Shown: piece by piece, positions 2,362 through 44,552 of the stretch
Layout: each line of letters begins with the position of its first letter
How positions within the stretch are numbered: the first letter of the stretch is position 1
Source of the DNA: Candidatus Bathyarchaeota archaeon
GTDB lineage: Archaea > Thermoproteota > Bathyarchaeia > Bathyarchaeales > Bathycorpusculaceae
Assembly: GCA_963777155.1 (NCBI GenBank)
Contig: CAVZPM010000001.1
Location: forward strand, 32,001 to 96,000
Direction: 5' to 3'
Length of the DNA stretch: 64,000 bases
The notes under the pieces: model-generated
Told to the model about the DNA's origin: nothing
Databases searched by the model: none
Seen by the model: the letters and a program-made list of their open reading frames with translations, nothing else
Program-made: the position numbers and the translations under genes

Positions 2362-3852
2362 TTATTGCGGTTGGCTTATTTCAACCTTATGTTGCACTTT
2401 CCAATCTTTGAGTGGAACGCCAAGTTTCTTTTCCACTTCAGTCCGGTGGATGGAGTTCATTGTACAGAAGGGTATTATTCGTCCATCTGGGACAGCGTAG
2501 TGGATGCCGCATCTCTGTACTCTTTCGAGGTCAAAGTTGTAGGGATCCATGAAGTGCATTGATGAAATCATGAGTGCGCTGCGTGCGAAGTCACCTAGTG
2601 ACTGATAATCGCCATCCATTAGGACTTTTAGCACATATTTGCGTAGGAAGCCAAATTTGATGTGGCGAGCAGAACCAACTAATCTGATTTTAGCTTTGCT
2701 CTTGTTTCCTTTTGAGGCATCTTCGTAGACACCTTTTAGGGAAGCAACAAATTTTTCTATGTTGCCATACCGGGTTATCGGGGTAATTTTACCGTTCTCA
2801 ATGAAGACGAAGGTTGCCATTCCGCAATGTTGATGTACTGTGAATTCAACGTAGCGCTTGCCTTTAAGTTCGCCGACTGCTTTGGAGACTGGTACAACGA
2901 CTGGAACTGGGTAGAAGTCTGAGACTTTAATGTCGCCTTGGGTTTGCTCTTCGACTAAATGCATGAAATCAGGGATTGTGATGCGCATTTTTTCTCTTTC
3001 TTGCTGGGGCAGTCTTCCGCAGAGGGAAACTGGTTGAACGTTGACGCAGCGGATGATGTCATTGTTTTTGGCTGCGAACTTTATGATGTCTCCTAGTTGG
3101 CTGTCGTTGACGCCTTTAACCAGGGTAACTACCAGCACCATGCTTGTGAAGCCGGCTTTGCGCAGATTCTCAATTGCCTTCATCTTGGTTTCAAGGAGGT
3201 CTACTCCTCGGATGAAGTTGTAAATGTCAGAGGTTAAGCCGTCAAATTGCAGGTATACAGTACTGAGGCCTGCTTCTTTGAGTTTTTTGGCGTATTCAGG
3301 ATCAGCGGCAATCCTTAAGCCGTTGGTGTTGACTTCGACATGTTTGAAGCCAACCTCTTTGGCTTTGCGTATGAAATCAAATAATTCATTGCGGATGGTT
3401 GGTTCTCCACCTGAGAACTGTAGTGCTGTTGCAGGAACTGGTTTATTGTTATGGAGGTTCTCCAGCATACCTGTGACTTGTTCAGCGGTTGGTTCATAGA
3501 CGTATCCGGCTGCGGATGCGTTTGCAAAGCAGACTGGACATTTCAGGTTACACCGATTTGTGATGTCGATGATTGCAAGAGAAGTGTGAGATTTGTGTTC
3601 TGGGCATATGCCGCAGTCATATGGGCAACCCAGCTTTTTTTCGGTGCGAGGGTTTTCGATGCCGTCGCCTACCCATCGGTATTTTTCAGCACGCATGTAT
3701 TGGTCGTAGTCTGACCAGTAAAGTTCTTGGCATGGTCCGTGGTCTGGACATGTTTTTTTTATGAAAACTTTTCCTTCATCCTCGTAGATGGTTGCATCAA
3801 GAGGCTTAAGGCACTCAGGGCAGATGCTTTTTGTTGATTTGATATCTTTCAT
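2362..3852 (-). CDS. tes: Tetraether lipid synthase (Tes/GDGT-MAS, MJ0619 family radical SAM)
   Basis: N-terminal CPEC...CPDHG, CPYDCGICPEHKSHT, CNLKCPVC radical SAM motif, HCG, C-terminal CGIHYAVPDGRIIPFC. Confidence 0.85.
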   Translation of the reverse strand: MKDIKSTKSICPECLKPLDATIYEDEGKVFIKKTCPDHGPCQELYWSDYDQYMRAEKYRWVGDGIENPRTEKKLGCPYDCGICPEHKSHTSLAIIDITNRCNLKCPVCFANASAAGYVYEPTAEQVTGMLENLHNNKPVPATALQFSGGEPTIRNELFDFIRKAKEVGFKHVEVNTNGLRIAADPEYAKKLKEAGLSTVYLQFDGLTSDIYNFIRGVDLLETKMKAIENLRKAGFTSMVLVVTLVKGVNDSQLGDIIKFAAKNNDIIRCVNVQPVSLCGRLPQQEREKMRITIPDFMHLVEEQTQGDIKVSDFYPVPVVVPVSKAVGELKGKRYVEFTVHQHCGMATFVFIENGKITPITRYGNIEKFVASLKGVYEDASKGNKSKAKIRLVGSARHIKFGFLRKYVLKVLMDGDYQSLGDFARSALMISSMHFMDPYNFDLERVQRCGIHYAVPDGRIIPFCTMNSIHRTEVEKKLGVPLKDWKVQHKVEISQPQ

Positions 3853-3957: not shown

Positions 3958-4716
3958 ATGTCAATAAACGAAGATACTCGAGCTGCTCTACGTGAAATGG
4001 GTTTAAATGCTTATGAAATCGACGCTTACATAGTTCTGCTGGAAGGCGGGCAGATGACAGCTATGGAGATCAGTCAACAAGCCACCGTACCTTATAGCAA
4101 AATGTACGAAGTTTTAAACTCCCTCAAAGATAAAGGCTGGATTAAAAGCAGCGAAAGTCGACCATACAAGTATTATCCAGTCCCGCCCTTGGAAGCCACA
4201 CGATTCACTAAGTTGCAGCTAGAAGATAAGTACCTAAACTGGGAAAATACAGTCGCAGAAAACCTCCAACCGCTCTACGAAAAACGGGAACTCATCGAAC
4301 ATCCTGAAATGCTGATTTTACGCGGCCAACAAGCTGTTCTAGCCAAGCTTGAAGAAGTCCTCAAAAAAGCTTCCTTGGAAATTGTGATTGCTGCACCAGA
4401 GTTTGCTAAACCAGTGATTGCTTTGGCTCAACCTTTACTGGGTAGCGGGTTGAAAAAAACGGTCAGTGTTAAGCTTATGGCGGCTGGAAAAAAAGAGGAT
4501 TGGCTTTTCCTAAAAAAATACTCTGGCTTAAACGAACTGCGTTTCCGCGACCATATGTTCGGTGGTGGTGTGATTGCTGACGGTAAAGAAGCAATGCTGT
4601 TTCTTGGAGAAGACAAACCAACCCTTGTCATCTGGAGCAACCACGTCGGCCTAGTTGGGTTCGCACGAGAATACTTCCAATTCCTTTGGGCCTCCTCAGA
4701 AACTGCTATAGCTTAG
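3958..4716 (+). CDS. TrmB family transcriptional regulator
   Basis: GLNAYEIDAY...VPYSKMYEVLNSLKDKGWI...RPYKYYPVPP TrmB wHTH plus C-terminal domain. Confidence 0.9.
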   Translation: MSINEDTRAALREMGLNAYEIDAYIVLLEGGQMTAMEISQQATVPYSKMYEVLNSLKDKGWIKSSESRPYKYYPVPPLEATRFTKLQLEDKYLNWENTVAENLQPLYEKRELIEHPEMLILRGQQAVLAKLEEVLKKASLEIVIAAPEFAKPVIALAQPLLGSGLKKTVSVKLMAAGKKEDWLFLKKYSGLNELRFRDHMFGGGVIADGKEAMLFLGEDKPTLVIWSNHVGLVGFAREYFQFLWASSETAIA

Positions 4717-35309: not shown

Positions 35310-36026
35310 ATGACACCCAATAAAAACAGTAGGGCACCATACAAGCGAAAATCCAACAAGACACTGTTTCTTGCAATAGGCATAATTGCTATAATTCTAA
35401 TCGGCGTCGGGGCATACATTATGTTCGGGCAATCAGCAAACCAACCAGCTAACGCGACGCCAACTCCTACGCCTACTCCAGCACCGACTTCGTCAACATC
35501 GCCTTCGGCTACACCTGCCGATCCCCATTATGTCAACCCAACAAAAGTTCGGCTTCAAACCTCCGTCGGAAACATAACCCTTGAGTTGCGAAGCGATAAG
35601 CCCATCACAACTGCTAACTTCATAAACCTCGTACAACAAGGAAAGTACGATGGAACAGTTTTCCACAGAGTAATTGCAGGCTTCATGATACAGGGCGGCT
35701 CAATCAGTGGCTCCACCCCCACTATAGCTGACGAAATTGGGAGCAACAATCGTAATGTTGCGTACACAATAGCTATGGCGAAAACCAGCGACCCCAATTC
35801 AGCAACAAGCCAATTCTTCATAAACGTTGCCGATAACGGAAACAACCCCATAGACCAGGCAGGAACCAAATTCGACGCAGTTTACGCAGTCTTTGGAAAA
35901 GTAGTCGAGGGTCAAAGTGTCGTTGATGCAATAGCTAACGCCCAAGTTACCGCAAATCCATACACACATGAAAACAGTTCACCTGTTAACCCTGTCACAC
36001 TAACAAAAGCTACAATATTACCTTAA
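35310..36026 (+). CDS. Membrane-anchored cyclophilin-type PPIase
   Basis: N-terminal TM helix, PT-rich linker, FHRVIAGFMIQGG, SATSQFFIN, AVFGKV. Confidence 0.92.
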   Translation: MTPNKNSRAPYKRKSNKTLFLAIGIIAIILIGVGAYIMFGQSANQPANATPTPTPTPAPTSSTSPSATPADPHYVNPTKVRLQTSVGNITLELRSDKPITTANFINLVQQGKYDGTVFHRVIAGFMIQGGSISGSTPTIADEIGSNNRNVAYTIAMAKTSDPNSATSQFFINVADNGNNPIDQAGTKFDAVYAVFGKVVEGQSVVDAIANAQVTANPYTHENSSPVNPVTLTKATILP

Positions 36027-36114
36027 ATAGATCCAAAATATCATCCTTCAACTTTTCTTTTTTATTTAATTTAATAAATCTGTGGCATTAAGCACAATCA
36101 AGACAGCCTATCTT

Positions 36115-36141
36115 TTGCAATAGGCATAATAGCTATAATTC
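36115..36141 (+). repeat. Decayed copy of the 35371-35397 signal-anchor coding sequence
   Basis: TTGCAATAGGCATAAT(T/A)GCTATAATTC, 26/27 identical. Confidence 0.85.
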
Positions 36142-36163
36142 AAATTGATCTCTTTGATAAATT

Positions 36164-36649
36164 ATGTCAGGACAAACATCAAATCAACCTGAAACTAAAA
36201 TTCTACTTCACACAAGCATGGGCGATATAACAATCGCTTTGCGCAACGATATGCCGATAACCACAGGAAACTTCAAGAACCTTGTACAAAAGGGGACTTA
36301 CAACGGTACAATTTTTCACCGTGTCATCCCAGGTTTCATGATTCAAGGCGGGGACCCAACAGGCACCGGTTATGGCGACCCATCAATACCTGAAATCCGA
36401 GATGAATTTACAAAAACCAACCGCAACGACAGAGGCACAATATCAATGGCAAACGCGGGTCCAAACACAGGAAGCAGCCAATTCTTCATCAACCAAGTAA
36501 ACAACAACTTTTTAGATGGCAAGCACCCTGCCTTTGGCAAAGTCATCGCTGGAATGGATGTCGTCGATAAGATCGTTAAAGTGCCAACCAACCGGAACGA
36601 TAAACCTTTAACCAATGTCACAATTGTTAGCGCGACAATCTTGCTTTAA
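36164..36649 (+). CDS. Cytoplasmic cyclophilin-type PPIase
   Basis: FHRVIPGFMIQGGDPTGTG, SMANAGPNTGSSQFFI, LDGKHPAFG. Confidence 0.95.
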   Translation: MSGQTSNQPETKILLHTSMGDITIALRNDMPITTGNFKNLVQKGTYNGTIFHRVIPGFMIQGGDPTGTGYGDPSIPEIRDEFTKTNRNDRGTISMANAGPNTGSSQFFINQVNNNFLDGKHPAFGKVIAGMDVVDKIVKVPTNRNDKPLTNVTIVSATILL

Positions 36650-36675
36650 ACAAAAAATAAAAAGTTAAAAATTAA

Positions 36676-36879
36676 CTATTTTTTCTTTTCTTCTTCAGGT
36701 TTAGGCTTAGAACCGATTTCTACAGCTTGGATGCTTATTTGGTATTTCTTGCCGCCTGCAACCATCTTTCCCGTTCCGTAGTAGCCTCTGCTGCCTGTTT
36801 TGAAGTTTTTTTTGTCGAGGATGAAGTTTTGTTTTTCGCCACATAGCTGGATAGTTGACATGTTTACATCGTTACTCAT
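36676..36879 (-). CDS. Small basic hypothetical protein
   Basis: GGTGAG SD; FKTGSRGYYGTGK...KYQISIQAVEIGSKP. Confidence 0.7.
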   Translation of the reverse strand: MSNDVNMSTIQLCGEKQNFILDKKNFKTGSRGYYGTGKMVAGGKKYQISIQAVEIGSKPKPEEEKKK

Positions 36880-37088
36880 TTTAGGTCTCACCTATCTTTA
36901 CTTCTTATCATTGTTCTGTTGCTTTTCACCTTTTCGCTTTGAGTTCTGGACATTTTGTTTTTAGGTTACTTTTTTATTTTCATTAAATCCAAATCTACCA
37001 ATGGCACTGGACTATTTTTTGTAAAGCGTCTTTCAGCAAAGTTTTTAAGTGTTATATTAACTCTTATGAGTTAATATAGTGAATCCGT

Positions 37089-37448
37089 ATGCCAAAACTC
37101 CCAAAAAATGAAAAAATCATCGGTTACGCCCTACTGATCTTAGGTGTCATTTTGTTGCTTTTTTCAATCGTTGAAATGGTGACAGTCTATTACGGTTATG
37201 CTCCTCCACCAAAACTCTTCAACCTCCAAGACATTTCCCTGCCCGGAGATAACGGATCGAACATATCGTTAATTCAAGGCGCCCAAGCAAGCCAATTGCC
37301 TAACCTTTTCTTCTGGTTTTTACTTATGGGGTTTGTCCTGCTTGCAGGAGGAAAAATCGCGTCATTGGGTATTAGCATGATTAAAGATATTAAAGTTGAA
37401 ATAAGCGAGCCAATGACAACGCCTGCCAATGTACAAAGCGCCAAATAA
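37089..37448 (+). CDS. Hypothetical two-TM membrane protein
   Basis: Two hydrophobic helices; similar to the next gene. Confidence 0.75.
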   Translation: MPKLPKNEKIIGYALLILGVILLLFSIVEMVTVYYGYAPPPKLFNLQDISLPGDNGSNISLIQGAQASQLPNLFFWFLLMGFVLLAGGKIASLGISMIKDIKVEISEPMTTPANVQSAK

Positions 37449-37464
37449 ACAAACGTGACTGCCC

Positions 37465-37911
37465 ATGGATTCTTCAGCAACCGAATACATCAAAATTCTT
37501 CTAGATGTTTTGGTAGCTGCCATAATAACTGTGGTCTTATTCTTTATTGTTCGACGATCAAGAAAGGAACAAACATTCGTCGGATACACAGCGCGATCAG
37601 TTGAGGAAAAGTACATAGGATATGTTTTGCTTGTAACAGGGATAGTTGTAATAGTTGTTTCAATCTTCGAGCTAATTGTTCTCTTAGAAGGCAATTACTA
37701 CTCGCCTATACCGTTTGGCTTGACTGATCTCCAAATGACCACAGGCAACCAAACTACAGCTGTTGCTTCAGGACAGCTTTTAGGGCTAGGCTTCGGCATA
37801 TCCTTTTGGCTGTTAATCTTCGGTGCTGGCGGAAGAAAGCTGGTATCCATTGGATTGGATATGCTGAGGGGCAGAGCAATAAAGATTCGGAGAACCGTCA
37901 AAACCCGATAA
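37465..37911 (+). CDS. Hypothetical membrane protein, paralogue of 37089-37448
   Basis: IGYVLLVTG vs IGYALLILG; GGRKLVSIGLDML vs GGKIASLGISMI. Confidence 0.75.
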   Translation: MDSSATEYIKILLDVLVAAIITVVLFFIVRRSRKEQTFVGYTARSVEEKYIGYVLLVTGIVVIVVSIFELIVLLEGNYYSPIPFGLTDLQMTTGNQTTAVASGQLLGLGFGISFWLLIFGAGGRKLVSIGLDMLRGRAIKIRRTVKTR

Positions 37912-38308
37912 TTGAAAAGAGAAAATGGTGCGGTCGCCGGGATTTGAACCCGGGATCATTAGCTTGGAAGGCTAAAGTCCTAAACCAGACTAGACGACAA
38001 CCGCTCATGTTTTGCTGTTTAAGGCTGTTTTTGGGCTTATTTAGGTCATGGGCTTCTTTGTTTTGGCTTTGACCTATTTGACCACTTGTTGCCTTTTCAG
38101 TTGTCAGAGAAATGCCTTGTGTTTTTAATAAAGTTTTCAGAGATTCCATGCTTTGAGGATGATATTCAAACTGGGGTTTGCCCTTTAGTTGTCCTGTGTA
38201 GTGTCTTGCTCTGCCATAAGCTAGTTGTCCATTGTTTCTGATGAATAGTTGTATCAGAGAAACTTTGCCACAAACTCCACATTCAGATTTCACACACTTA
38301 AACTTCAT
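37898..38308 (-). CDS. CxxC-containing ORF reading through tRNA-Gly; candidate N-terminal integrase-like fragment or array-associated protein
   Basis: GGGGAG SD, ATG, CGVCGK and ARHY; last ~30 codons are tRNA sequence; no tyrosine-recombinase catalytic domain. Confidence 0.55.
   Translation of the reverse strand: MKFKCVKSECGVCGKVSLIQLFIRNNGQLAYGRARHYTGQLKGKPQFEYHPQSMESLKTLLKTQGISLTTEKATSGQIGQSQNKEAHDLNKPKNSLKQQNMSGCRLVWFRTLAFQANDPGFKSRRPHHFLFSIIGF
37926..38004 (-). tRNA. tRNA-Gly (TCC), CCA encoded
   Basis: GCGGTTG/CGACCGC acceptor stem, TTAGC-CTTCCAA-GCTAA anticodon arm, CCGGG-TTCAAAT-CCCGG T-arm, ACCA end. Confidence 0.97.
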
Positions 38309-38360
38309 ACAGATACTCCCCTTAGACTTGGAGCTGGAGTGCCATAGAGCTATTTTAAGA

Positions 38361-38383
38361 CCATTAAGAACTAGTTTTGGAGC
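38361..38383 (+). repeat. Cassette repeat, 3' half-copy (left edge of array)
   Basis: CCATTAAGAACTAGTTTTGGAGC matches the 3' part of copy 3 (CATTAAGAGCTAGTTTTGAAG). Confidence 0.75.
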
Positions 38384-38877
38384 GTAGGCTGTGTGAGTGA
38401 TTGTTGCTTTTTGTTCCTTAACTCAACTAGCAGTTGAGCAGTCAAAGAAGGAAAAAAATACAGAATAAAGCTACTAGTTATGAAACTTACATAAACTGAT
38501 GCTGGGAATAATGGAGACCCCGTCCAAAACAGGAAAACTGAAACAAAACCACCTATTGTTATTCCTAAAAGTATCGCTAAGGTTGTTGATTTGCTAGCCA
38601 CTAAGTTTGTTGTGTTTGCTAAGAGGTAGAAGACGCCAAAGAAAATTCCCATCACTAAAAGGGTAACAGTTATTGTTGAAAGATTGGTAAATGTGAGCAA
38701 GAAAAATGAAAGTGCAGAGGTTGTGCTTACTATTAGTTTTAAAACTGTGCATGCAATTGTTAATCCAAAAGCAACAAGGAACGTTATTAGGGCTTTTTTC
38801 ACTTGCTTTGCCTCAAATGGCAATACATTTGTCTGTGGATAAAAGGTTTCACTTACTCTAATTTTGGAGTGTAACAT
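38371..38877 (-). CDS. Cassette ORF 1: multi-TM membrane protein
   Basis: About four hydrophobic segments; stop lies in the left half-repeat; start uncertain (track start 38916 falls within the repeat). Confidence 0.65.
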   Translation of the reverse strand: MLHSKIRVSETFYPQTNVLPFEAKQVKKALITFLVAFGLTIACTVLKLIVSTTSALSFFLLTFTNLSTITVTLLVMGIFFGVFYLLANTTNLVASKSTTLAILLGITIGGFVSVFLFWTGSPLFPASVYVSFITSSFILYFFPSLTAQLLVELRNKKQQSLTQPTLQN

Positions 38878-38884
38878 CAGGTAT

Positions 38885-38944
38885 GCTCTAAATCTGCTAA
38901 TCAGATTAGACAGCATCCAATCTTTAAGACCTATTCTTTAGAGC
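38885..38944 (+). repeat. Cassette repeat, full copy 1
   Basis: GCTCTAAATCTGCTAATCAGATTAGACAGCATCCAATCTTTAAGACCTATTCTTTAGAGC; perfect 8-bp terminal inverted repeat. Confidence 0.85.
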
Positions 38945-38999
38945 TAAAATCATCAATGTAAACAAACCTTAAATCATAAAAGAATGCAAAGGAGCTTCT

Positions 39000-39425
39000 A
39001 TGCGGTTAGATAGAAAATCCCTGTTTGCATTGGCAGTTGTTGTAATGTCTCTTATTTTTATAGTTACTATACTCTATTTTGCAATAGGCACAAAGGGCAA
39101 TCTTGTCAGCACTCATTCTCCTTATACTGGAGAGAGCAGTTATGGTCATGGCTGGAACTCAACTATTAAACTATACCTTGAAAATGTTGGAGGTGGACCA
39201 GCAACAATCTGTGACTTTGTGATTAATGGCAAGTCCTATAGCAGTTATGTTCCTGTTCCTTCAGTTAATCCATCTATAGAGAATGGGTACACCTTGTCTC
39301 TTTTTCAAAGTATTACCTTTACAATTAAACTCATTAACCAACCATCTGCGTTGTACCAAGGTGGAAATGAATTATATGTTTTAACAACAGATGGTCAGAG
39401 TCTAAGAATATACCTTGGCAGTTAA
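39000..39425 (+). CDS. Cassette ORF 2: N-anchored exported beta-rich protein (pilin/archaellin C-domain-like)
   Basis: N-terminal TM; LYLENVGGGPATI..FVING and VLTTDG motifs; GGAG SD. Confidence 0.7.
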   Translation: MRLDRKSLFALAVVVMSLIFIVTILYFAIGTKGNLVSTHSPYTGESSYGHGWNSTIKLYLENVGGGPATICDFVINGKSYSSYVPVPSVNPSIENGYTLSLFQSITFTIKLINQPSALYQGGNELYVLTTDGQSLRIYLGS

Positions 39426-39444
39426 GTACTGATGATTCAAACCT

Positions 39445-39501
39445 ACTTCTAAATCCGCTAGTCAGCAATGACGCTTCCAACCATAAAAAATAGTTTGGAG
39501 T
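39445..39501 (+). repeat. Cassette repeat, full copy 2
   Basis: ACTTCTAAATCCGCTAGTCAGCAATGACGCTTCCAACCATAAAAAATAGTTTGGAGT. Confidence 0.8.
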
Positions 39502-39546
39502 GATTGAGTGTAAAATTATTTATACCTCTTGCAATAAGTGGGGGTC

Positions 39547-39825
39547 ATGATTAAAGAAGCGTGTATAATTGTTTTAGCTTCATGCTGTATCTTTTCAGTT
39601 ATTCCCCTAGTTTCAGTATTCTTTAATGCTTTGAGTTTATTCTTACCTGTCAGTTTCCTTTTACTTGTTCTATCTTACGCTGTCTATGATGCTAAAAAAT
39701 TGATTGATAATAGAGAATACAATTTGTTGAAGGGGTTTATTCTGTTCCTAGTTATTGCTATTGTGCTATCTATGATTGCAGTCTATTTTATTCTGCCTTA
39801 TACTCTTCCTAAATTTGTACTTTAA
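39547..39825 (+). CDS. Cassette ORF 3: small three-TM membrane protein
   Basis: Hydrophobic ORF filling the space between repeats; TTTATA box and GGGG SD upstream. Confidence 0.7.
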   Translation: MIKEACIIVLASCCIFSVIPLVSVFFNALSLFLPVSFLLLVLSYAVYDAKKLIDNREYNLLKGFILFLVIAIVLSMIAVYFILPYTLPKFVL

Positions 39826-39862
39826 GTTATAAAGCATAACTAATTCATTTTTACATTTTACA

Positions 39863-39921
39863 CTCTAAATATGCTAATCAGCTTTGATAGCCTACAATCA
39901 TTAAGAGCTAGTTTTGAAGAG
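39863..39921 (+). repeat. Cassette repeat, full copy 3
   Basis: CTCTAAATATGCTAATCAGCTTTGATAGCCTACAATCATTAAGAGCTAGTTTTGAAGAG; 40/48 ungapped identity to copy 1. Confidence 0.85.
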
Positions 39922-39964
39922 CATATGTAAAAATAGCAAATCTATTATACTTCAAATAGTTGAA

Positions 39965-40276
39965 ATGAGGAATATGCACAAATTAGGTAAGATTGCAGTA
40001 GTGACTAACATTCTTCTTGCTTTATTATTTGTTTATTCCAATTTTTCACTTTGGAGTTTAGTGAATGCTGAGTATCCTTATCTAATTGCTAGTCATTGGA
40101 GTCCATTAGGAATTAGTGCTCCACACTATGTAATAACTGATGGGAGTTTTGCAATGGTCCAAACTGTCTTTTTGTATTTTAATTTCCCATTCTGGCTATT
40201 CTTTATTTCAATTGCTGTGAACTTATACTTTATACTAAAACTGAGTAAAGAAGCTAAAAGAGATAATATACGCTAA
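39965..40276 (+). CDS. Cassette ORF 4: two-TM membrane protein
   Basis: Two hydrophobic helices; its TAA is the CTAAAT of the next repeat; start 39965 or 39974. Confidence 0.7.
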   Translation: MRNMHKLGKIAVVTNILLALLFVYSNFSLWSLVNAEYPYLIASHWSPLGISAPHYVITDGSFAMVQTVFLYFNFPFWLFFISIAVNLYFILKLSKEAKRDNIR

Positions 40277-40304
40277 ATATGCAATTCAACTTAGGCAGAT
40301 TCCA
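40271..40304 (+). repeat. Cassette repeat, 5' half-copy (right edge of array)
   Basis: CGCTAAATATGCAATTCAACTTAGGCAGATTCCA, 25/34 identity to copy 1, after which similarity ends. Confidence 0.7.
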
Positions 40305-40597
40305 CATATCCATCCTATAAACAAAGGAGATTGCCTGAAGGTATGATGCTTTCCAATACCCAAGTTTCTTCAGCCCCCTTTCTTATGAGGACAAAAAACT
40401 TATCCAAAGAAGTTATCCTAAAAACTGAAGACTTGTGGGTTCTAACCATATCCCATTTGAAGTTTTCTACCTTCAGCATACTGGCGAACATGGTTTTGTT
40501 CAAAATAAATTTCAAGACCGTCCTCTTAAGCTAAGGTTCAGGATCAACATTGCTCAGAGGATAGTAGTTAAATGATTTTTTCATTTGAGAATAAATA

Positions 40598-40620
40598 AAG
40601 GCTTTTTTAAAAAAAGCCTT
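40598..40620. terminator. Palindromic T/A-tract, probable terminator of the ferritin-like gene
   Basis: AAGGCTTTTTT-A-AAAAAAGCCTT directly at the stop codon. Confidence 0.5.
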
Positions 40621-41077
40621 AAGGGAAGCCTGTTATCAGGTCATACAAGTAGGCGTCCCATTCGGTTGATTCTTTATTAAGAATCTCTAAAACTTCTTTT
40701 AGAACCCTGTGATGTTTCTTCTCATCTTCCAATATATTAAGAATAAGTTGTTTAATCTTCTTGTCCTTTACAACTTCACTAATGTCTTTTGTTTGCTTTA
40801 GCATTTGGGCTTCTTCTTTAATGTGGACTGCAAGTTCTTTTTGTCCAATATCTTTACTTTCGGTGCCAATTAGTGCACTTGAGTTCAGGTCTATGAGCAT
40901 TTGATAAGTATCTGAGTGTTTCTTGGTGTCAAGAATTAGACTATGTATAAACAGTTTTATGATTGGGTTTTTTGATGATTCATACAATGGGGTTAGTTTT
41001 TTAGCGGTTTGGTCTTCAAACTCTTTTTGTTTCTTGATTTTTAAAAGTGCGTCTTCTTCCAATATTTTCCAGGACAA
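40619..41077 (-). CDS. Ferritin-like (rubrerythrin-type) protein
   Basis: Duplicated helices with DTKKH and DEKKHH motifs. Confidence 0.8.
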   Translation of the reverse strand: MSWKILEEDALLKIKKQKEFEDQTAKKLTPLYESSKNPIIKLFIHSLILDTKKHSDTYQMLIDLNSSALIGTESKDIGQKELAVHIKEEAQMLKQTKDISEVVKDKKIKQLILNILEDEKKHHRVLKEVLEILNKESTEWDAYLYDLITGFP

Positions 41078-41515
41078 AGAGATTCCTCATGAATGTTCAA
41101 GAACAATTTACTATTTAACTTTTTTAATAACCTCAATTCCCAATTTGGGCAAGAAGATTGTTAATTAGTATTTGTTGTCTTTTTATTTGCTCTGCAGATC
41201 TTATGTCTTAGCACCTTCGTATGGTACTTTTTCATAATTGTACTTGGCTAAATATTGTATGGCATTTTTGCTGTGTGAAAATGGGGTAAAGTAATGCTTG
41301 CACCCAGATAGGAGAAAAGTGAAGGTGGAGATAGATGCAAGCATCACACCATTTTTTCCCTAAACAATAACCAAACGCTTTCTCCACTTAACATTTTTTG
41401 AGAAGACAACTTCACTGTTTTGCAAAGAAGAAAGGGAAAAAGTTAGAGGAAAATTTTCTTTAGTTGCCTTATATAGAAATCAGATCTTACGCCTCAATCT
41501 CGTCTTGGAAACTCG

Positions 41516-41905
41516 TTAGTGGTTTGAGTTAAACAAGGGACTGGAGATTATCATGTCTGCTGTGGCTCTATTGCAGGCAGTCGGAATATTATACAAGACT
41601 GCCAATCTAAGAACTGCTTTAACATCAACGTCGTGAGGCTGAGACTCCAATGGGTCCCAAAAGAATATCAATATATCTAGTTTCTCATTGGCAATCATAG
41701 CTCCCAGCTCCATGTCTCCACCAAAAGGTCCGCTCTTTAACAGGTTTATCTTCAAATTTGTATTCTCAATTATCTTCTTGCCTGTTGTTCCTGTTGCGTA
41801 AAGGCAATAGTGGGATAGAGTTCCTTTGTTGAAATCACACCACTCAACCAAATCCTTTTTCTTGTTATCATGAGCTACAAGCGCAATGGTTTTCATAATT
41901 TTCAA
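41516..41905 (-). CDS. mgsA: Methylglyoxal synthase
   Basis: IALVAHDNKK, ATGTTG, SGPFGGD, FFWDP, PHDVDVKAVLRLA, ACNRATAD. Confidence 0.95.
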   Translation of the reverse strand: MKIMKTIALVAHDNKKKDLVEWCDFNKGTLSHYCLYATGTTGKKIIENTNLKINLLKSGPFGGDMELGAMIANEKLDILIFFWDPLESQPHDVDVKAVLRLAVLYNIPTACNRATADMIISSPLFNSNH

Positions 41906-42241
41906 TTCCAGTGTGTTTTAAACCAACACAAATCTTAATGACGCGTCGAATAAAAACATGTATTGAATTTGTTTTCAAGGTTATTCCAAGAACTGAAAAT
42001 ATGCCTTAAAATTCTCTGAACACTTGAGTTCACTAAATTATTTGGAGCTAGAAAAGCATTGAATACAGTTAAGACATGGTTGAGAATGATTAGAATTAGT
42101 GCTGTTTTCTTAGTTACTTCTTACCTTTGCTACCTTTTCTTTGTTCACTGAATCAAGCGATTTCCCGGAATTACCTATCTCATGATGCAAAAACTTAAAA
42201 CTCATAATATATAGCATATTGAGTAAGGGAATCAAAAAGAA

Positions 42242-42418
42242 ATGATGAAGCAAATAGTCACCATAAGTTATTTTGTTTTGGCCGTTCTATTAGCCGCAAT
42301 TGCATTTAGAGGCTTTATGAGTGACCTTCTTGTTGCATTGACAATAGGGGTTATCGTTTTCATAGTTGTTATAATTGTTGGTTATTACTTTACTAAAAAA
42401 TTATTAGATTCAGATTAG
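42242..42418 (+). CDS. Small two-TM protein (58 aa, not in track)
   Basis: MMKQIVTISYFVLAVLLAAIAFRGFMSDLLVALTIGVIVFIVVIIVGYYFTKKLLDSD. Confidence 0.6.
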   Translation: MMKQIVTISYFVLAVLLAAIAFRGFMSDLLVALTIGVIVFIVVIIVGYYFTKKLLDSD

Positions 42419-42535
42419 TTCCTATAACCTTTAATTTGCACTAACTTGAAAAATTATCCGTGAGTTTCTTGTTTATAAGATGGAAGAGTATATCTTGCTG
42501 AAGGTTTACGCTTATTGAATAGTTAGGTTAGAAAG

Positions 42536-42817
42536 ATGAGTTCAGGAAAAGAGAGAAAAAAAATTCCCGGTAGCAGAATGAAAATCCTAACTAAAGACGC
42601 CAAACAGATGGTAAACGGGCCATATTATTGTCCAAAATGCAGAAAGGAACTGCTTCAGATTTGTGCTGACCTAAAAAAGAAAGAGGTTTATGCAATCTGC
42701 AAATGTGGACTTGAGTGGCCTCTGACTTATGCGCCTGTTTTTCAACCTATCGATTACTACAACAAATTCCGTGATGCATGGAAAAAACAGAGTTACGGTA
42801 TAATCAAGCAAAAATAA
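42536..42817 (+). CDS. Elf1-like zinc-ribbon protein
   Basis: Basic N-terminus, YCPKC...CKCGL, then PIDYYNKFRD resembling the Elf1 C-terminal helix. Confidence 0.65.
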   Translation: MSSGKERKKIPGSRMKILTKDAKQMVNGPYYCPKCRKELLQICADLKKKEVYAICKCGLEWPLTYAPVFQPIDYYNKFRDAWKKQSYGIIKQK

Positions 42818-43412
42818 ACCCGTCACTTCAACTTTCCCATTCTGATTGGACAAAACAAATTATCTATACGCATGAACTTATCCGTTTTACCAAATGGAGA
42901 AAACGCTTTGATGAGGAGAAACTTGACTTTAGTCGTAGACTACTGATTTGGGGAACCCTTGCGCTTCTCGGATGGGTTTTTTAGCATTCTTTACTTGTGT
43001 TGTTCTACACTTTCCTTTATAGTTGGTTTTATCTGGTTTTCTTAGCCTTCGAAATCTGCGTTATCCTGCGGGGGGCTTGGCTGCAACAGTTGTTATCAAT
43101 GCAAAGGTGCACGAGTGGTTTTGGCAGGTTGGCAGGGGTATTTTTCGGGAGAGAATATGTGAAAAAGGAAAGTGTGAGTAACAGGATTGGATTGGTCCTT
43201 TGTCTATGTGTTGCTATTTGTGCTTCCAACTGTGTTGATGCCTGTTTCACTTGTAACCTCGGTTTCTTACATCAAAGTGTTGGGTTTTACTTGTCTTTTC
43301 GCTATAACGGTTTATAGCTTAGCCAATTGGTCTAAGTGTTCAACAGTAACCAAGAAATCCTGATTTGGGACAAGTTTTAAACCATAGACTGCAAATTATT
43401 TCCAACATCAAA

Positions 43413-44552
43413 ATGGTTAAGTTGGGTAGACTTTTGCTGAAACAAAAACCATATGGACTAACAGTTATCGTAATTTTAATGCTATTAGTGTCTGCCTCTG
43501 TAACTTTTCCTCTTAAAACGTCTGCGCAGACCAATAGTTATTATGATAAATCGTTCGCCTGGGATTATAAGGGTCAACATTGGACATGGAACCTTAGCAT
43601 TCCAATAGACCTATACAACGCCTACAAATCGGTTCCCATTTCCACTCGAACAAGAGATGGACCAGCAGGTTACGGTTTCTGCACAACAACCAAAGATTCC
43701 TATGTGTTAAGTTTAGCTAAAGAGTTGAATGACACTGCAAACGAACTTGGATACAATTCTTTCGATACAATTAGTTTTGCATTGTCTTTTGTCCAAAGTT
43801 TACCCTATACATCTGATTCAGTGACGACAGGGCATGATGAATACCCACGGTTCCCCATTGAGACTTTGGTGGACGACGGCGGGGACTGCGAGGACACATC
43901 CATACTATTTGCGACTTTAACTCTTATTATGGGCTATGGCACAGTGTACATTAATCCTCCAGACCATTATGCCGTAGGCATCTTGGGAAACAACCTTCAT
44001 GGCACCTACTGGACCTACCCCGAAGGCTCCAACAAAACATACTATTACTGCGAAACCACTGGGGATGGTTTTATGATTGGGCAGTTGCCAGATGAATTCC
44101 AGGGAAAAAGCGCCTACATCTACCCAATTGATGAAACCAGACAGTATATAACCACTGTAACGGTCCTTCCTCCAATTACGCCAAGCCCAACAGATTCGCC
44201 TGTTACTACTCTGCCGAACCAGACAACTCAACCAACCCCCAACGATTCGACGTCTCCTTCAATCCCGGGACCAAGTGTTGAGCCAGTTCTGCCGTTATCT
44301 TTCAACTTAATCTCAGACAACCCGCTGTTATTTATTCTAATAATGTTTGCAATCGTTATTTCGATTGGAATCGCGGTCTGGTCGGTGAGAAAACCAAAGC
44401 TGTTGCCGGTGGAAGCTCCTTTGGTTATTGAACCGAGCAATCCGCCAGTAGCATCCGCTGAATTGGGGAATAACAAGTTCTGTATCTATTGCGGTTCAAA
44501 CAACAAAACATATGCTGCATTCTGCGAGAAATGCGGAAAACAAATAGGCTAA
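43413..44552 (+). CDS. Exported transglutaminase-like (papain-fold) protein with TM anchor and C-terminal zinc ribbon
   Basis: Signal peptide, FVQSLPY, GDCEDTSIL, HYAVG, YYCETT, PT linker, TM, CIYCG...CEKCG. Confidence 0.8.
   Translation: MVKLGRLLLKQKPYGLTVIVILMLLVSASVTFPLKTSAQTNSYYDKSFAWDYKGQHWTWNLSIPIDLYNAYKSVPISTRTRDGPAGYGFCTTTKDSYVLSLAKELNDTANELGYNSFDTISFALSFVQSLPYTSDSVTTGHDEYPRFPIETLVDDGGDCEDTSILFATLTLIMGYGTVYINPPDHYAVGILGNNLHGTYWTYPEGSNKTYYYCETTGDGFMIGQLPDEFQGKSAYIYPIDETRQYITTVTVLPPITPSPTDSPVTTLPNQTTQPTPNDSTSPSIPGPSVEPVLPLSFNLISDNPLLFILIMFAIVISIGIAVWSVRKPKLLPVEAPLVIEPSNPPVASAELGNNKFCIYCGSNNKTYAAFCEKCGKQIG

Follow-up and report, generated by a model that had tools for sequence, protein, structure and literature searches.

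Complementary partial repeats at the edges of a small-gene cassette array beside an SSV-type integrase fragment in Bathyarchaeia

The window analyzed here, a 64,000-nucleotide (nt) stretch of a Candidatus Bathyarchaeota archaeon genome (assembly GCA_963777155.1, contig CAVZPM010000001.1, positions 32,001 to 96,000), contains at 38341-40322 an array in which three full repeats of ~58 nt separate four small unrelated genes. The edges of this array carry only parts of the repeat, the 3′ part on the left and the 5′ part on the right, which raises the question of whether they mark a site of cassette insertion and, if so, where within the repeat the exchange took place. According to the reading that we favor with moderate confidence, the two half-sites form the permanent borders of a slot for cassettes, which were exchanged by recombination at a universal motif of the repeat. 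An initial annotation of this DNA had placed the crossover at CCAAyCAT, about two-thirds into the repeat.

Repeats, borders and the adjoining integrase fragment

The array comprises the following features, in the numbering of the window; protein lengths are in amino acids (aa).

38362..38384, plus strand: left border, the 3′ motif alone (CATTAAGAACTAGTTTTGGAGCG), corresponding to the last 23 nt of the repeat
38371..38877, minus strand: cassette 1, in reverse orientation, encoding a 168-aa protein with four predicted membrane segments
38856..38874, plus strand: extra partial 3′ motif (CTCTAATTTTGGAGTGTAA), 10 nt before R1
38885..38944, plus strand: full repeat R1 (5′ part and 3′ motif), by profile match
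39000..39425, plus strand: cassette 2, encoding a 141-aa protein with an N-terminal membrane anchor
39447..39502, plus strand: full repeat R2, by profile match
39547..39825, plus strand: cassette 3, encoding a 92-aa protein, hydrophobic by eye and probably membrane-embedded
39863..39921, plus strand: full repeat R3, by profile match
39974..40276, plus strand: cassette 4, encoding a 100-aa protein, hydrophobic by eye and probably membrane-embedded
40271..40307, plus strand: right border (R4), the 5′ part alone (CGCTAAATATGC...TTCCACAT), corresponding to the first 37 nt of the repeat

When the whole 2.29-Mb genome was searched with a profile of the three full repeats, the right border corresponded to model positions 3-36 and the left border to 37-56, so that the two are exactly complementary, and a 21-nt pattern from the 3′ part occurred twice in the window against 0.06 expected. 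The initial annotation was therefore correct in describing the edges as complementary partial repeats, which both the genome-wide profile and the coordinates bear out, and the pattern is not due to chance. Refined profiles matched the left motif with an E-value of 2.8e-7 and the right part with 8e-7, the search space being the loci fetched for comparison only. Both half-sites contain CAT, and unrelated sequence (ATCCATCCTATAAAC) lies directly 3′ of the right border. The stop codon of cassette 1 falls within the left motif and that of cassette 4 within the first bases of R4, and ~130 nt of cassette 1 beside the left motif share ~77% identity with the same position in loci L047 and L061.

Comparison among related arrays resolved the repeat into a universal motif of ~24 nt (..TAAGAACTAnTTTTGGAGCG), which precedes every cassette including the first, and an optional part of ~38 nt (GCTCTAAAT...TCCAAyCAT), which follows many cassettes. 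A recognisable 5′ part precedes only 12 of the 34 internal 3′ motifs, and the repeat is therefore composite: where one cassette abuts the next, the optional part and the universal motif together form a full repeat, and the borders show one part only.

The left border lies directly upstream of the promoter region of an integrase gene fragment, Int(N), and the features flanking the array are as follows.

37926..38004, minus strand: tRNA-Gly(TCC), found by ARAGORN and by Rfam (tRNA, 64.4 bits); the 5′ half served as integration core of the element (attR side)
38308..38020, minus strand: Int(N), the 96-aa N-terminal zinc-ribbon fragment of a split 'suicidal' SSV-type integrase
38341..38361, minus strand: upstream/TATA region of Int(N), a putative promoter
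40314..40322, plus strand: CCTATAAAC, a conserved backbone motif after the terminal 5′ part, possibly the TATA box of a rightward backbone gene
40343..40534, plus strand: short open reading frame, or degraded sequence of the backbone, right of the array

Suicidal integrases, according to the accessible text of Badel et al. (2021, PMC8371274), carry the attachment site inside their own gene, so that int is broken into two pieces, Int(N) and Int(C), when the element integrates. The attachment core inside the integrase gene, split at the tRNA core, was recognized in three ways. The open frame of Int(N) in the window reads into the 5′ end of tRNA-Gly and on through the tRNA to 37898. The 395-aa protein P0001, whose N-terminus is 76% identical to Int(N) across all 96 aa and which matches PF16795 (archaeal SSV-type integrase, Phage_integr_3) at 29.1 bits with a cut-off of 27, contains in its middle the peptide CGRRLVWFRTLAFQA, which in the window is the translation of the tRNA gene; this mid-protein peptide and the frame into the tRNA are therefore the signature of a suicidal integrase. 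Locus L061 (genome G097), a syntenic tRNA-Gly locus, keeps a whole element with a partial tRNA/attL core copy, an Int(C) pseudogene, a body of ~1.7 kb, Int(N) and the tRNA. By sequence comparison, Int(N) is thus shown to be the remnant of a suicidal integrase predicted to have been split by integration into tRNA-Gly(TCC). The window lacks Int(C) and the second copy of the core, no further copy or fragment of tRNA-Gly was found in it, Rfam over 37800-42600 returned the tRNA only, and Pfam gave no family above its cut-off for the four cassette proteins or Int(N). The region before Int(N) is conserved as a GAGCTATTTAATGACC or GATATAAAGACC type in many related loci, so the "weaker echo" of the repeat that the initial annotation had seen at 38341-38360 is better described as the TATA-containing upstream region of Int(N) than as a repeat copy.

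Across the comparison set of 120 genomes of the same Bathyarchaeia genus, Int(N) profile matches were present in 66, none as a full-length frame, and P0001 matches in 80. Among the fetched loci, Int(N) adjoins tRNA-Gly, -Pro, -Arg and -Ser, with an identity between related loci of roughly 33-52%. The left 3′ motif was detected by profile upstream of int in 23 of 46 Int(N) loci, with the equivalent of CAT 47-64 nt from the ATG (median 56), and most of the remaining loci carry, by eye, a diverged variant. In eight of the 46 loci the array closes with a 5′ part that has yTATAAAC no more than 75 nt behind it, as is the case, by eye, in L057, L061 and L064, and the terminal copies end at profile positions 36-40 in the window, L015, L020 and L025. 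Full repeats also occur in the arrays of six other genomes, and 86 of 87 motif matches in the fetched loci (one locus being listed twice) are co-oriented relative to int. Allowing at most two mismatches, a 20-nt form of the motif had 101 matches in 52 of the 120 genomes against ~18 for a reversed control, and 55 of the 101 sit, by hand comparison, just upstream of a listed Int(N). Beyond this set, the motif had no matches in viral contigs, a metagenome scan with P0001 recovered one distant integrase only (37% identity) and no array, and a scan of genome contigs gave two loci only.

Cassette exchange and the switch point

The cassettes of these arrays are modular. Homologues of cassette 3 with 79-83% identity come second in the arrays of L011 and L023 (G012 and G090), beside other neighbors, and homologues of cassette 4 lie in L024 and L037 (G119 and G110) among different neighbors; another cassette, k, opens the array in G090, closes it in G092 and is found in G114 as well, and a segment X stands at the start, in the middle or at the end of the array in at least eight loci. 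Loci L044 and L049 are 94% identical in Int(N), promoter and left motif and 94-95% identical in the right flank from CTCTATAAAC onward, but the arrays between these like flanks, of 2.2 and 1.55 kb, are unrelated; the switch points are the left motif and CTCTATAAAC, and homology resumes exactly at the conserved backbone motif. Repeats within one array (mean identity 0.66) are as similar as repeats from different genomes (0.65), which argues against duplication or homogenisation and for independent acquisition. Tandem duplication or concerted evolution was rejected on this ground and because the four cassette proteins of the window are mutually unrelated (best E-value 0.35). The recurrence of cassettes 3, 4, k and X in varied positions and among varied neighbors shows that cassettes move between arrays and are reshuffled as modules among genomes and unrelated platforms.

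Comparing the same cassette in different settings allowed the switch in identity to be mapped. The int promoters and the left halves of the motif are unrelated in L043 and L057, yet from TTTGGAGCGTAAG the two loci have 833 nt in common at 90.6% identity, after which the 5′ parts following the common cassette differ. For cassette k in L022 and L023, 7 of 35 positions agree before the motif, 4 of 15 in its left half, 10 of 13 in TTTTGGAGCG and 50 of 57 in the cassette. Cassette-specific identity thus begins at the distal invariant TTTTGGAGCG, ~15 nt to the right of CAT, and not at CCAAyCAT, where the initial annotation had put the crossover as a point of difference from attC. The exchange point looks distal in the repeat, and so probably closer to that of attC than had been supposed. 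A contig of run X2 that joins 38867 to 39507 within a shared GAGTGTAA just after the motif gives a weak hint (contigs only, at 90% likeness) of a relative without R1 and cassette 2, its left side being the partial motif at 38856-38874; two other joints of the same run (38383 to 38881 and 39899 to 40274), with 21 letters on the short side, are probably the repeats themselves or a relative and were not interpreted. Parts of the window were without cover in runs X1, X3 and X5, which carries no information. Ends of high-scoring segment pairs (HSPs) coincided with motifs at both ends in six cases against 0.04 expected, but 102 of the 118 HSPs represent flank or backbone, so that this weak signal was not relied on.

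An unoccupied site was predicted by the initial annotation to survive in relatives. The corresponding junction, GACCAT-N1-9-CTATAAAC, had 13 matches in the 120 genomes against 15 for the control, none of them at an Int(N) locus, so that the predicted junction was not found, and the locus nearest to an empty platform was L025, in which the motif and the terminal 5′ part lie 35 nt apart. The term attI-like suits the left border as regards its position beside the integrase gene; neither an insertion event nor an empty site was seen among these genomes.

Given these observations, a possible course of events can be proposed. A small element would have entered the 5′ half of tRNA-Gly(TCC) by means of a suicidal integrase of the SSV type, an event that split the int gene. 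Its cassette slot would extend from the integrase promoter (38341-38361) to the backbone motif CCTATAAAC (40314-40322), and cassettes could be gained or exchanged by recombination at the universal motif, most likely within or next to the invariant distal TTTTGGAGCG and not at CAT. The enzyme might be supplied in trans, either as an intact integrase of the family with relaxed specificity or by the host recombination machinery. The integrase is the only recombinase encoded by these elements, and some members of the suicidal integrase family catalyze, according to the accessible text of PMC8371274, a low-specificity recombination that resembles homologous recombination, which would fit switch points that do not all fall at one base. 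Because none of the recombinase families searched for was found in the genome, the array in the window would now be a fossil.

Several points weigh against such an exchange. In the genome, at 90.6% completeness, there is no match to PF00589, PF16795, PF01797 (Y1 transposase) or PF00239 (serine recombinase), although the control search found PF00589 in 14 of 14 reference genomes, and the repeat motif is not a known target of any recombinase. The motif has no clear dyad symmetry or conserved fold, and local alignment of the repeat consensus with tRNA-Gly, whose core is the canonical site of the integrase, was not significant against shuffles (p 0.23 forward, 0.25 reverse). Junction mapping comprises few pairs, and the conservation of the motif itself blurs the switch point. 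A distal crossover does not predict a conserved terminal site made of the 5′ part only, which must be assumed to be native to the platform; the 35-nt spacing in L025 fits this assumption. Standing just upstream of the int TATA box, the motif could equally be a regulatory site. Finally, the platforms are related by descent, and their concordant edges reflect conservation rather than independent events.

The model of the initial annotation, in which circular cassettes with one full repeat each insert by crossover at CCAAyCAT into an attI-like site beside the int promoter, accounts for edges that are exactly complementary and both contain CAT, for terminal 5′ parts that end within the narrow range of profile positions given above (and as ...TTCCACAT and ...TTCCAATCAT in L022 and L011), and for the spacing between 5′ part and 3′ motif, which is constant within 1 nt in 12 full repeats from seven genomes. 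Cassette k also continues after CAT into the backbone in L022 and into the motif of the next cassette in L023, as this model would have it. We nevertheless consider it rather unlikely: the empty junction was not found in the 120 genomes, 22 of the 34 internal motifs have no recognisable 5′ part, the cassette is not accompanied by the left half of its motif (CAT..GAAC) in either L022/L023 or L043/L057, the 5′ part after the common cassette differs in L043/L057, and a mere 3 nt are common at the proposed crossover. The terminal copies might otherwise be full repeats that decayed at random, their complementarity being a coincidence, and MAFFT did align a faint likeness of the 3′ part (CCTAT...GGAG) to the right of R4. 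This explanation is already contradicted and has next to no credibility, because related arrays show both partial forms again, with identical breakpoints, the right flank is a conserved family of its own (yCTATAAAC) and on the left the flank consists of the conserved promoter region of the integrase. Full-length terminal copies or variable breakpoints, which the initial annotation regarded as the mark of decay, were not seen in other arrays, and recent copying of a single decayed locus is argued against by the different tRNA targets and the Int(N) identity of ~33-52%.

It might also be that no recombination specific to cassettes took place. The motif and the 38-nt part would then be regulatory or termination signals, such as an operator beside the int TATA box and a T-tract terminator, and the arrays products of serial integration at one tRNA, deletion of integrase and backbone, and homologous recombination. 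Tandem and hybrid integrase remnants in G021 and G085, the fusion in L064 of a right-flank motif to a second int leader without an int gene, and internal copies of the int leader in L059 (at 574) and L011 (at 4010-4058) all suit such a history, and regulatory roles are suggested by the TATA-like box read downstream of the motif for each plus-strand cassette, by the T4-5 tract within the motif and by switch points that are not at a single fixed base. The precise join of 5′ part and motif in the 12 full repeats would be hard to obtain by random deletions, repeat copies of ~65% identity are poor substrates for homologous recombination, genes that are unrelated share these flanks and their orientation, and no gene on the plus strand would need a terminator at the place of the left motif. 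We regard the explanation by signals and serial integration as rather unlikely, though a serious rival, as is exchange by host homologous recombination, and retain fixed half-site borders with exchange at the universal motif as our preferred reading.

The nature of the repeat was examined further. The attC sites of integrons have a conserved single-strand hairpin (R''/L''/L'/R') and little sequence conservation. RNAalifold on the 12 full repeats predicted no pairs, their terminal inverted repeat was 67.7% paired with 422 of 500 shuffles as high, single-strand fold z-scores ranged from -2.1 to +0.8, and the mean column identity was 75%. An attC-like site was ruled out by this lack of a conserved fold together with sequence conservation in its place. 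A tRNA-derived repeat had been suspected from matches to CTTCCAA and TAATGAT and was rejected because the likeness to tRNA-Gly was not significant (the p-values given above). A dispersed repeat of the miniature inverted-repeat transposable element (MITE) or repetitive extragenic palindrome (REP) type, which would have many copies across the genome, usually with terminal inverted repeats, was rejected because the copies in the own genome are confined to the window array and to one further small array, beside the Int(N) remnant of contig C11.

Relation to known systems

The arrangement resembles integrons, including the archaeal ones as described in the accessible text of Ghaly et al. (2022, PMC9668308), in the integrase gene with a putative recombination-type site beside its promoter, the co-oriented array of mostly single-gene cassettes with ~60-nt sites between them, the diversity of sites within an array that equals that between genomes, the cassettes common to different arrays in different positions, and the apparent exchange point near the distal end of the site. 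It differs in its enzyme, since IntI is a PF00589 tyrosine recombinase with an additional IntI-specific domain, whereas the enzyme here is of the SSV type (PF16795), known for inserting whole elements into tRNA genes; no IntI-type PF00589 recombinase, as integrons have, was found in the own genome (90.6% complete). Further differences from that description are that the sites here are conserved in sequence without a conserved single-strand fold, that the array ends in a conserved site made of the 5′ part only instead of a full site, that the cassettes seem to carry their own promoters, and that the platform itself is a mobile element of ~3 kb.

Suicidal SSV-type elements such as SSV1, pTN3, pT26-2 and TKV, as far as the accessible text of PMC8371274 describes them, likewise have the attP inside int as part of a tRNA gene, and in them int is split, remnants accumulate at tRNA genes and excision needs an intact integrase in trans. 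The present elements differ from them in their mesophilic Bathyarchaeia host, in an integrase with an N-terminal zinc ribbon, in their tiny size (a body of ~1.7 kb plus int) and in the repeat-bounded cassette array beside the int promoter; the word "cassette" does not occur in the accessible text of PMC8371274. Tandem islands anchored at tRNA genes (tycheposon-type or 'additive') also stack small accessory-gene units by a tRNA, with repeated sites as bounds and no recombinase in the units. Their repeat duplicates the tRNA end (the att core), whereas the repeat here is unrelated to the tRNA, and the present array starts at the integrase promoter and not at the tRNA.

It is tentatively conceivable that these arrays represent a second kind of integron, in which archaeal elements of ~3 kb use, or are parasitised through, a suicidal SSV-type integrase for the capture and exchange of single-gene cassettes at a 24-nt double-stranded site beside the int promoter, with a specificity separate from the tRNA target and with the borders as permanent ends. 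If capture at the motif is true, integron-style shuffling would have arisen independently with an archaeal-specific integrase family and a sequence-defined double-stranded site, and suicidal integrases would gain a second activity. This would also help to explain the spread of variable genes for small membrane proteins by tiny elements in the abundant uncultured Bathyarchaeia of sediments and soils. Such arrays were not found in the accessible literature, supplements aside, on archaeal integrons, suicidal or SSV-type integrases and integrated elements of Bathyarchaeia (including PMC11697101, PMC10848311, PMC8371274 and PMC9668308), and even under a conservative reading the element family, its tRNA targets and the conserved cassette slot were not found described in searchable papers.

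The integrated element and its surroundings

The chromosomal flank in G097 includes an Elf1-like gene, which lies at 42536 in the window, so that the inserted DNA extends from 38005 to before ~42200. Within a stretch of 738 nt, where the syntenic locus of G092 has 112 nt, lies a methylglyoxal-synthase-like gene (41516-41905). The first ~45 nt of the short frame or decayed sequence at 40343..40534 share 82% identity with the right flank of the L015 array, which is at a different tRNA.

Bodies of ~1.7 kb between Int(C) and Int(N) were found in L061, L067, L047 and L057 (G097, G110, G054 and G116), and a whole element of ~3 kb is expected for such bodies, with the integrase as the only conserved gene. 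This size seems very small for an integrative element. A conserved non-coding motif, CTTGACCCTCCAAGCAG, lies near the 3′ end of Int(C) or its former place in L061 (9470-9500), L067 (4280-4305) and L011 (4846-4880).

Contigs from other metagenomes diverge exactly at the ends of tRNA-Gly, at 38004 and 37926 in run X3 and at 38004 in run X2. Such loose ends would be seen where relatives have a different insertion at this tRNA or lack one. Integrase genes of the family that appear contiguous and full-length were observed in L064 (4855-5989), L066 (4609-5746) and L065 (4799-5910), on long chromosomal contigs with no tRNA directly adjacent, and may be either hybrids rebuilt by tandem integration or non-split integrations. 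At 6330-6420 of L064, a second int leader and left motif, with no int gene, come ~20 nt or less after a right-border motif (ACATCCTATAAAC), an arrangement that looks like the scar of tandem elements after the loss of int and backbone.

The own genome (G000, 90.6% complete) contains no PF00589 tyrosine recombinase, not even one of the XerA type. Its second array, on contig C11 (L069:2173-3330), lies at tRNA-Arg(TCT) and comprises an Int(N) remnant, a variant of the left motif (CCATTAGAAAAAGTTCTTTAGTG) and a cassette, followed by a 3′ motif at 2878-2899, a cassette in reverse orientation and a variant of the full repeat near 3255-3315. In the window, an islet of low GC content (33-38% against ~44-47% around it, within 36000-43500) spans the tRNA, the array and its right flank.

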